From Candidatus Ryanbacteria bacterium RIFCSPLOWO2_12_FULL_44_26 (lineage in GTDB: Bacteria; Patescibacteriota; Minisyncoccia; Ryanbacterales; HO2-45-13): a stretch of 64,000 nt of DNA. The DNA lies in NCBI GenBank assembly GCA_001821765.1, contig MHOA01000006.1, forward strand, positions 4,389-68,388, in the 5' to 3' direction. The notes beneath the pieces are model-generated. The model worked only from the letters and a program-made list of their open reading frames with translations, was not told where the DNA came from and did not search any database. The position numbers were made by a program, and so were the translations under genes. This document shows, piece by piece, positions 51,290 through 52,297 of the stretch. Each line of letters opens with the position of its first letter. The first letter of the stretch is position 1.

Positions 51290-51357
51290 AAGTCGTCTTA
51301 CTGTGATTCATATACCCAACCGAGAGGGCACATCAGAGATTTTTGCTAAAATATGTT

Positions 51358-51427
51358 CAAGCTTGGTCGTATAAATACACCAGAACAAAACTTTTCGGCT
51401 TTTTGGTGTATTTATACGACCAAGCTT
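51358..51427. repeat. 24-bp perfect inverted repeat (hairpin, 21-nt loop)
   Basis: CAAGCTTGGTCGTATAAATACACCA ... TGGTGTATTTATACGACCAAGCTT read directly. Lies between the C39 gene and the tRNA-Phe promoter. The + strand ORFs through it (51343..51564, 51353..51595) look spurious. Confidence 0.6.
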
Positions 51428-51517
51428 TTAAGCAATCGCAGACACACCCCCATAGTGTCCGCTTCAGGAGCACTACTGCCGGGGTTCGGTTACCCCCCAC
51501 TTTTTACCTATATGTTT

Positions 51518-51545
51518 TTGCAAATCTGCGCGGAATTGGTATACT
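51518..51545 (+). promoter_or_regulatory. Candidate promoter for the tRNA-Phe/tRNA-Val operon (TTGCAA, 16-nt spacer, TATACT)
   Basis: Hexamers about 55 nt upstream of the tRNA 5' end. Approximate. Confidence 0.35.
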
Positions 51546-51601: not shown

Positions 51602-51914
51602 GCTTGGGTAGCTCAGTGGTAGAGCGCTTGCCTGAATCTTCGGGCCATCCCGCAGTAATGCGGGATTGCAAATCGGGTGAAATCGGAGAAACTTCCGCCA
51701 TAAACGGAACAACCCCGAGCCAAGCCGAAGCACATAACGTCTTATGTGCTCGGAAGGTGTAGAGACTATCCCTTTAAGGGAGTACTCCATTAGATGAATG
51801 CAGATTTATTAAATGGGGGAAGCGCCCGACATCCGCCCTAGGCGGATGATGATATAGTCCAAGTTGCTCAGGAAGAGCAAGGCGTCGGGAGTTCGATTCT
51901 CCCCCCAAGCACCA
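51602..51914 (+). tRNA. tRNA-Phe (anticodon GAA) interrupted by a group I intron in the anticodon loop; CCA encoded
   Basis: Exon 1 GCTTGGGTAGCTCAGTGGTAGAGCGCTTGCCT (acceptor, D-arm, 5' anticodon stem, C32 U33). Exon 2 GAAGAGCAAGGCGTCGGGAGTTCGATTCTCCCCCCAAGCACCA (anticodon GAA, 3' anticodon stem GCAAG pairs with CTTGC, 5-nt variable loop, T-arm GGGAG-TTCGATT-CTCCC, acceptor CCCAAGC, A73, CCA). The 5' exon ends in U and the intron ends in G, as required for group I splicing. The exact splice junction is ambiguous by the shared G/GAA. Confidence 0.7.
51634..51871 (+). ncRNA. Group I self-splicing intron (about 238 nt) within tRNA-Phe
   Basis: Contains the conserved group I core P7 strands: an R-like element AGAGACTATCC (GACTA) and an S element GATGATATAGTCC (matches consensus AAGATATAGTCC). 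GACTA/TAGTC are complementary as in P7. No ORF (too short for a homing endonuclease). Confidence 0.7.
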
Positions 51915-51927
51915 GTATTAAACTTAT

Positions 51928-52001
51928 GGGCGGCTAGCTCAGTTGGTTAGAGCGTCTCGTTTACACCGAGAAGGCCTCAGGTTCGAATCCTGAGCCGCCC
52001 A
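51928..52001 (+). tRNA. tRNA-Val (anticodon TAC), CCA not encoded
   Basis: GGGCGGC-TA-GCTC-AGTTGGTTA-GAGC-G-TCTCG-TTTACAC-CGAGA-AGGCC-TCAGG-TTCGAAT-CCTGA-GCCGCCC-A. U33, TAC, A37. Confidence 0.85.
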
Positions 52002-52297
52002 TTAAAATTTTCATTACAGCTTCTTTCCAATCCTTATCGTTATCTGCACAGAGCATTTCATCTGTGGCACATTTGTGTTTATTGGCAACTTGCTTGTATA
52101 TTTCTTTTTCATTCTCAAAACGCATTTCGATTTATTTTGAGCCCCAATTTCTAACTACGGCGGGCGTTTAGCGCAAGCCGTCGCTTTTCCATACGAGCTC
52201 TTTTTAAGAATGGAGTACTATAACAACATAACGTGGCCCTATCGCGCGGCATTATGTTATTGTGGTGAAGGTTGGCCATCCGGCACAAAATCAAACA

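Follow-up and report, generated by a model that had tools for sequence, protein, structure and literature searches.

The 64,000-nucleotide stretch of Candidatus Ryanbacteria bacterium RIFCSPLOWO2_12_FULL_44_26 analysed here (hereafter the window) carries a tRNA-Phe(GAA) gene that is split between U33 and G34 by a 238-nucleotide group I ribozyme, subgroup-IA-like and devoid of an open reading frame (ORF), a reading to which we assign a probability of about 0.88. The Rfam covariance model RF00028 (Intron_gpI) matched positions 51624-51880 with 71.7 bits (gathering score 50, E = 3e-16); the alignment spanned the full model (positions 1-253 of 253) and this was the only group I match in the window. 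Default ARAGORN found five other tRNAs and missed the split one. When introns were allowed, it reported tRNA-Phe(gaa) i(34,238), and the 75-mer spliced in silico was recognised as tRNA-Phe(gaa) with a perfect cloverleaf. The intron has a minimum free energy (MFE) of -89.1 kcal/mol (z = -5.6 compared to 200 shuffles). No credible ORF was found within 51634-51871, the longest being a 52-amino-acid frame that starts in exon 1, and the intron therefore has no homing endonuclease. An initial annotation of this DNA had proposed two tRNA-Phe(GAA) halves separated by 238 nucleotides containing the P7 strands of a group I core. All these elements are present in the sequence, with the P7 strings AGAGACTAT at 51761-51769 and GATATAGTCC at 51851-51860; the tRNA identity, the group I model match and the expected fold, in which P1-P8 can be drawn and the U of the 5' exon forms a G.U wobble with the internal guide, were borne out as well.

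Fold, conservation and covariation of the intron

All canonical helices P1-P8 plus P7.1/P7.2 could be drawn with a single A.C mismatch, located in P4 (Table 1), and the unconstrained MFE fold of the intron contains P2, P3, P4, P5, P6, P6a, P7.1, P7.2 and P8. P10 and the intron-side extension of P1 are mutually exclusive. An archaeal-type, protein-spliced intron was ruled out by the full group I ribozyme and by the insertion site, 33/34 and not 37/38.

Species-representative genomes were scanned with a pattern of the 3' junction (P7 3' strand, short gap, omega-G, tRNA-Phe 3' half). At least 119 loci were retrieved, and this one scan placed the same split gene in more than 100 species-level genomes, nearly all of them Patescibacteria. 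Among the matches listed, 112 of 119 gave an ARAGORN call of an interrupted tRNA, 105 of them directly Phe(gaa); the seven other calls are apparently shifted placements of the junctions, three of them without detailed resolution. Seven loci had no ARAGORN call: five are real genes ending at the edge of the locus, one was left uninspected and one, from Kapaibacterium (L119), was rejected as an intron, being a chance match to the pattern. Intron length among the matches listed ranged from 195 to 336 nucleotides.

The helix map of the window copy was applied to a MAFFT alignment of 101 homologues (A2), on which it was 92.7% paired compared to 78.4% upon shuffling, the observed level being reached by 0 of 500 shuffles; sliding the partners by 1-3 columns gave 36-51% pairing. 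Changes on both sides were seen in 46 pairs. P7 is invariant and 100% paired in the 101 sequences, and P1 and the acceptor, D and T stems of the tRNA are also 100% paired across the family. Pairing reached 99.9% in P3 (3 pairs changed on both sides), 99.5% in P4, 98.0% in P6, 97.8% in P6a (4/4 pairs covary), 97.2% in P10 and 95.1% in the five inner pairs of P2, all five of which changed on both sides. Lower values were obtained for P5 (72%), for P8 (70%), the outer pairs of which covary, and for the two poorly conserved outer pairs of P2 (47%). Since MAFFT misaligns the variable parts, the percentages of P5, inner P8 and outer P2 are not evidence against these helices. The fold and the junctions, with their conservation and covariation, are the observed parts of our reading.

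In the classification of Michel and Westhof, helices between P7 and P3' are said to be the hallmark of subgroup IA. The P7.1/P7.2 insert of the window copy, together with the trend published for this phylum, in which tRNA introns are nearly all IA and none IC in the available parts of the source (PMC13011429), would place the tRNA-Phe intron in subgroup IA. Its pairwise global identity is 53-59% to IA introns of tRNA-Asn and tRNA-Asp, and likewise to the IC3 intron of Anabaena, so that the subgroup call rests on architecture. Within the Phe intron family the insert takes two mutually exclusive forms (A2 columns about 317-410), either a single hairpin with the highly conserved loop UGAG(U)CCCAACAAUAA or, as in the window, two hairpins (UCCC..GGGA, GUAC, a variable hairpin, GGGAAG). 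Patescibacteria tRNA-Asn introns also have both forms; judged from these sequences, this points to a common ancestry of introns in different host tRNAs or to exchange between them. In one homologue (L008) a run of N hides part of the intron (A2 columns about 322-405) and its aligned sequence is incomplete.

The short 3' tail and predicted splicing activity

P9 usually helps to position omega-G. The family is split in this respect, P7 being followed by a normal P9 hairpin in 48 genes and by none in 54, that of the window included. In this short-tail class 9-17 nucleotides separate P7 from omega-G, and the tails copy the 5' strand of the anticodon stem: at least four contiguous pairs to their own exon 2 (positions 39-43) can be formed by 39 of the 54 (72%); foreign stems lower the share to 13%, and of the 48 genes with P9 four reach this level. 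The mean energy of the tail duplex was -7.5 kcal/mol with the own exon 2 and -4.1 kcal/mol with foreign ones, the former value being equalled in 0 of 2000 permutations, and the own exon was the better partner in 12 of 14 stem types. The duplex of the window, UUGCUC:GAGCAA, has an energy of -7.0 kcal/mol (RNAfold) with omega-G 51871 in its loop, and the last hairpin of the Rfam alignment falls exactly on this element. In the P9-less class omega-G would lie in the loop of the tail helix, often in a tetraloop, G/GAA (here and below, a slash within a junction sequence marks the splice site).

According to these models the tail of the window intron probably pairs with the 3' strand of the anticodon stem in place of P9. 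For the P9-less class as a whole it is possible, but not probable, that a covarying helix between the last 9-16 intron nucleotides and exon 2 (37/39-43) replaces P9/P9.0, presents the 3' splice site and holds the stem open for P1. The host tRNA would then supply part of the peripheral architecture of the ribozyme. The tail helix overlaps P10 at positions 37-38 and would therefore not coexist with a full P10. It is the only point of this work that may be new; it was not found in the available parts of Williams 2020 or Nakagawa et al. 2026.

Catalytic activity of the tRNA-Phe intron is what we infer from its family membership and from the behaviour of related introns, the Asn and Asp tRNA introns of Patescibacteria being reported to self-splice in vitro with no protein (PMC13011429). 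Several observations weigh against our reading of the locus. The window copy has no P9, and the A.C mismatch in its P4 falls where 98 of 101 homologues have a pair. The splicing assays, as far as the available parts of the same source go, cover only Asn and Asp introns and no Phe intron, and the IA call rests on the P7.1/P7.2 insert and on a general statement in PMC13011429. The view of the genome is 64 kb wide, and a second intact tRNA-Phe gene is possible elsewhere. Finally, the covariation counts are inflated by the shared ancestry of the sequences; individual positions nevertheless show several distinct pair types, e.g. five in P2 and P6a, which implies many independent compensations despite this ancestry.

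Certain group I introns of organelles need aminoacyl-tRNA synthetases or maturases. The fold of the window intron could likewise be real and yet splice poorly alone, needing a host protein or an RNA chaperone, and the missing P9 hairpin (a trait of 54 of the 102 family members), the mismatch in P4 and the restriction of the in vitro assays to introns other than Phe would all fit such a dependence. We consider it unlikely, however, as conservation is complete for the core helices and the junction nucleotides, Patescibacteria Asn/Asp introns of similar size manage without protein (PMC13011429), CPR (candidate phyla radiation) members have reduced genomes, and neither the intron nor its immediate neighbourhood contains a maturase-like ORF.

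A decayed intron copy, which would make the split gene a pseudogene backed up by an intact tRNA-Phe gene elsewhere in the genome, is very unlikely. It could draw on the limited portion of the genome in view, on the P4 mismatch and on the fairly distinct sequence of the intron (best match about 73% identity among the species representatives listed). But the window copy retains all core positions that are invariant in the family, P1, P10, P3, P7 and the tRNA stems are all without mismatch, and default ARAGORN detected no second tRNA-Phe within the 64-kb window. Moreover, the Patescibacteria complete genomes in the available supplement of PMC13011429 have a single tRNA-Phe gene, which in the Doudnabacteria genome listed there carries the Phe 33/34 intron.

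Splice site and predicted spliced product

The junctions were compared among 102 unique genes. A four-nucleotide guide pairs with exon positions 30-33, with a G.U33 wobble, in 102/102; the exon:guide combinations are GCCU:GGGC (38), GACU:GGUC (34), CCCU:GGGG (28), GUCU:GGAC (1) and GCCU:GGGU (1). The five nucleotides 5' of the guide form P10 with exon positions 34-38 through five contiguous pairs (88 genes) or four (12 genes), and position 37 faces its P10 partner as G:C in 67, as A:U in 34 and as a mismatch in one. Among the matches listed, 100 loci normalise to U33/...G/G34, with U(-1) and omega-G in 100/100. In the window the repeated G makes cuts at 33/34 and 34/35 give an identical product and an intron ending in G. 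On these comparative grounds the insertion site is 33/34, because only this placement combines the U(-1).G wobble with omega-G, and because the intron starts with A in 29 of the 102 homologues, for which 33/34 is the sole placement yielding GAA. The initial annotation had proposed the same site but left the splice point ambiguous owing to the G/GAA shared by the two junctions, an ambiguity that the U(-1).G pair, omega-G and the 29 A-starting introns settle. GAA occurs at both junctions because the guide UCUUC-GGGC (51637-45) pairs first with the intron GA and later with exon 2 GAAGA. A cut one nucleotide downstream, between G34 and A35, would agree with the ARAGORN output and, through the repeated G, leave the mature tRNA and the last intron nucleotide unchanged, but it is hardly credible, since the -1 nucleotide would be G34, G-C paired in P1 in place of the U.G wobble kept in all homologues, and since the 29 A-starting introns permit only 33/34; the 34/35 placement by ARAGORN is an artefact of equivalent products.

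From standard group I chemistry and a cut between U33 and G34, the following pathway can be proposed. In the precursor, P1 with its U33.G wobble would arise when G30-U33 are released from the anticodon stem to pair with GGGC (51642-45), the internal guide. The bond 3' of U33 would be attacked by a free guanosine that occupies the invariant G-C pair of P7. The guide segment UCUUC (51637-41), initially on the intron GA(A), would then move to exon 2 G34-A38 to form P10. With omega-G (51871) in the G site, the bond after omega-G would be attacked by the U33 3'-OH. The predicted products are a 75-nucleotide tRNA-Phe with the loop CUGAAGA and a linear intron, the ligated junction reading ...GCUUGCCU/GAAGAGCAAG..., with exon 1 ending in GCCU.

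A37 is the usual residue in bacterial tRNA-Phe. The window tRNA has G at this position (G51875), as do about two thirds of the intron-bearing genes among the matches listed, and at least 119 tRNA-Phe genes of this G37 body type that lack the intron were found in metagenomes. Because it is common to intron-bearing and intronless genes, G37 is a lineage trait independent of the intron and not an argument against Phe identity. TrmD prefers G36-G37, and the A36-G37 context is not its usual substrate. An intronless mature counterpart with 100% identity exists for 9 of 58 intron-bearing G37 genes, which supports the predicted spliced product; judged from these gene sequences, close relatives differ in whether they carry the intron. 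The best intronless match of the window tRNA itself is 87.5% identical, and its body is close to those of the family members with A37, which have the anticodon arm usual in bacteria, GGACUGAAAAUCC.

Distribution, known relatives and genomic context

Hosts among the matches listed include Paceibacterota/Parcubacteria lineages, Saccharibacteria, Doudna-, Magasanik-, Falkow-, Uhr-, Moran-, Kerfeld- and Gracilibacteria, and others. The Phe 33/34 intron is common in Patescibacteria, far beyond one case in 95 complete genomes. Seven carriers are metagenome-assembled genomes (MAGs) labelled uncultured Gammaproteobacteria (L010, L042, L058, L072, L076, L081 and L089) and one is a MAG labelled Nitrospirota (L087). 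The eight contigs have a guanine-plus-cytosine content of 29-45%, and those of their introns that were compared are nearly identical to introns of named CPR genomes; because of this low content and these matches, the labels or the binning of the eight MAGs look wrong.

The class is a published one. Four classical classes of bacterial tRNA introns were raised to 21 by Williams (2020, bioRxiv 10.1101/2020.01.27.920355), according to the available parts of that work, on which the comparisons with it given here are based. It drew on the GenBank assemblies available in January 2017, and the MAG of the window may have been among them. The seed Mba55.Phe.2Ug is a Phe intron at loop position 2 (33/34) with U(-1) and omega-G. 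It shares with the window intron the host, the site, both junction nucleotides and a short tail without a real P9, as well as the core strings AAA-CUGGGUG-AAUUCGGGGAAA, GCC-GAG/AAG, GGUGUAGAGACUA, AGCGCCC and AUGAGAUAGUCC. Its P7-P3' insert, in contrast, is a single hairpin with the loop UGAGUCCCAACAAUAAU, whereas the window has the two hairpins P7.1 and P7.2, for which the Williams consensus structure has P7.1/P7.2 at the place of the insert. The tail of the seed was aligned as a 3-bp P9 (AAG/CUU); we rejected this mini-P9 for the window copy, which has AAG/CUC and cannot form it.

A second record, "Phe (GAA) 33/34" with its sequence, exists for the complete Doudnabacteria genome GCA_016699995.1 (Nakagawa et al., mSystems 2026, PMC13011429), where, in the available parts, the intron is known from a table entry alone. 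Its junctions are those of the window (GCCU/GAAUCUUCGGGCCAU ... CAG/GAAGAG), both genes have G37, and in both the short tail copies the 5' strand of the anticodon stem. Column identity over the whole gene is 82%, with compensatory changes in P2, P5 and P8. The Doudnabacteria intron is 211 nucleotides long with a single-hairpin insert, compared to 238 nucleotides and two hairpins in the window.

The available descriptions of the Asn/Asp introns of Patescibacteria show the same phylum, a similar size and core and a mostly ORF-less intron, and one Paceibacteria Asn intron has the insert type of the window (AGAGACUAUCCC..GGGAGUAC-hairpin-GGGGAAGCGCCC). They differ by their site (35/36), their host tRNA, a P9 hairpin and an identity of only 53-59%. 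The classical IC3 introns, as described in the available sources, are those of Leu(UAA) 34/35 of cyanobacteria and plastids, fMet 33/34, Azoarcus Ile and Agrobacterium Arg. Like the window intron they measure 200-250 nucleotides, lack an ORF, interrupt the anticodon loop and have a short P1/P10 involving loop nucleotides, the fMet site being 33/34 too; unlike it they have no P7.1/P7.2, have a P9, reside in other tRNAs and occur mainly in Cyanobacteriota and Pseudomonadota.

The Phe 33/34 intron class, with its host tRNA and site, has thus been known since 2020 and is no new kind of element. The initial annotation had taken tRNA-Phe 33/34 for an unusual host and site, a view that does not hold for a published class common in Patescibacteria; its list of hosts (Leu, fMet, Ile, Arg) reflects knowledge before 2020. 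The additions made here are modest: the broad distribution, the variable occurrence of the intron in close relatives, the helix between tail and exon in P9-less copies, and G37 in the mature tRNA. Neither Williams 2020 nor Nakagawa et al. 2026, in their available parts, mentions the broad distribution, the lack of P9 in half of the family with its tail-exon pairing, or G37. The main value lies in the annotation of tRNA-Phe: default tRNA finders miss the split gene, and the genome would therefore seem to lack tRNA-Phe. If this is the sole tRNA-Phe gene, all phenylalanine decoding would hang on RNA-catalysed splicing.

Table 1. Window coordinates of the split tRNA-Phe gene, the helices of its intron and an upstream promoter-like site
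Feature	Position	Strand	Remarks
tRNA-Phe exon 1	51602-51633	+	acceptor 5' strand GCTTGGG, D arm, anticodon-stem CUUGC, C32, U33 (-1 nucleotide); from sequence and ARAGORN
Group I intron	51634-51871	+	238 nucleotides, omega-G = 51871 (Rfam RF00028)
tRNA-Phe exon 2	51872-51914	+	G34 A35 A36 G37 A38, GCAAG, variable loop GCGTC, T arm, CCAAGC, A73, encoded CCA
P1	51630-35 / 51640-45	+	exon G30 C31 C32 U33 plus intron G-A with UC-GGGC; loop 51636-51639; no mismatch
P1 wobble	U33.G51642	+	marks 5' splice site
P10 guide strand	51637-51641	+	UCUUC, pairs with exon 2 G34-A38 (51872-51876)
P2 hairpin	51647-53 / 51660-66	+	AUCCCGC / GCGGGAU, loop AGUAAU
P3	51673-79 / 51823-29	+	UCGGGUG / CGCCCGA; drawn and aligned, also in MFE fold
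P4	51683-88 / 51713-18	+	one A.C mismatch; in MFE fold
P5	51693-97 / 51705-09	+	in MFE fold
P6	51719-21 / 51756-58	+	in MFE fold
P6a	51725-37 / 51742-53	+	in MFE fold
P7	51764-68 / 51855-59	+	GACUA / UAGUC; has guanosine-binding G-C pair; conserved J8/7 AUGAUA precedes 3' strand
P7.1	51769-73 / 51777-81	+	first hairpin of 54-nucleotide insert 51769-51822 between P7 and P3'
P7.2	within 51785-51818	+	two-part stem, second hairpin of insert 51769-51822
P8 hairpin	51830-37 / 51841-48	+	CAUCCGCC CUA GGCGGAUG
3' tail	51860-51880	+	short, without internal P9; UUGCUC (51864-69) can pair with exon 2 GAGCAA (51875-80)
Possible promoter	51517-51545	+	TTTGCA, 17 nucleotides, TG-TATACT, about 57 nucleotides upstream of tRNA; consensus scan, weak

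The neighbours of the split gene are ordinary housekeeping genes, encoding an MgsA-type ATPase, an RNase H-like protein, a C39 peptidase, HSP20 and PrsW, and further a class I aminoacyl-tRNA synthetase, TsaD and a DUF5671 protein. A tRNA-Val(UAC) gene (51927-52002) follows the CCA of tRNA-Phe after a 12-nucleotide spacer. The two are probably co-transcribed, in which case the precursor would need RNase P and 3' processing in addition to intron splicing. In the consensus scan that gave the possible promoter of Table 1, the number of promoter-like sites was not above that of shuffles. A 27-bp perfect inverted repeat with a 15-nucleotide loop (51354-51431; -43 kcal/mol, RNAfold) lies between the C39 peptidase ORF and tRNA-Phe and may represent a repeat element or a terminator acting in both directions; it gave weak matches to plant microRNA models on both strands, from the hairpin shape only. 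Upstream of tRNA-Phe the window has a tRNA-Arg(CCG) gene, while relatives often have Ile-Met or Leu-Val tRNA genes there instead.

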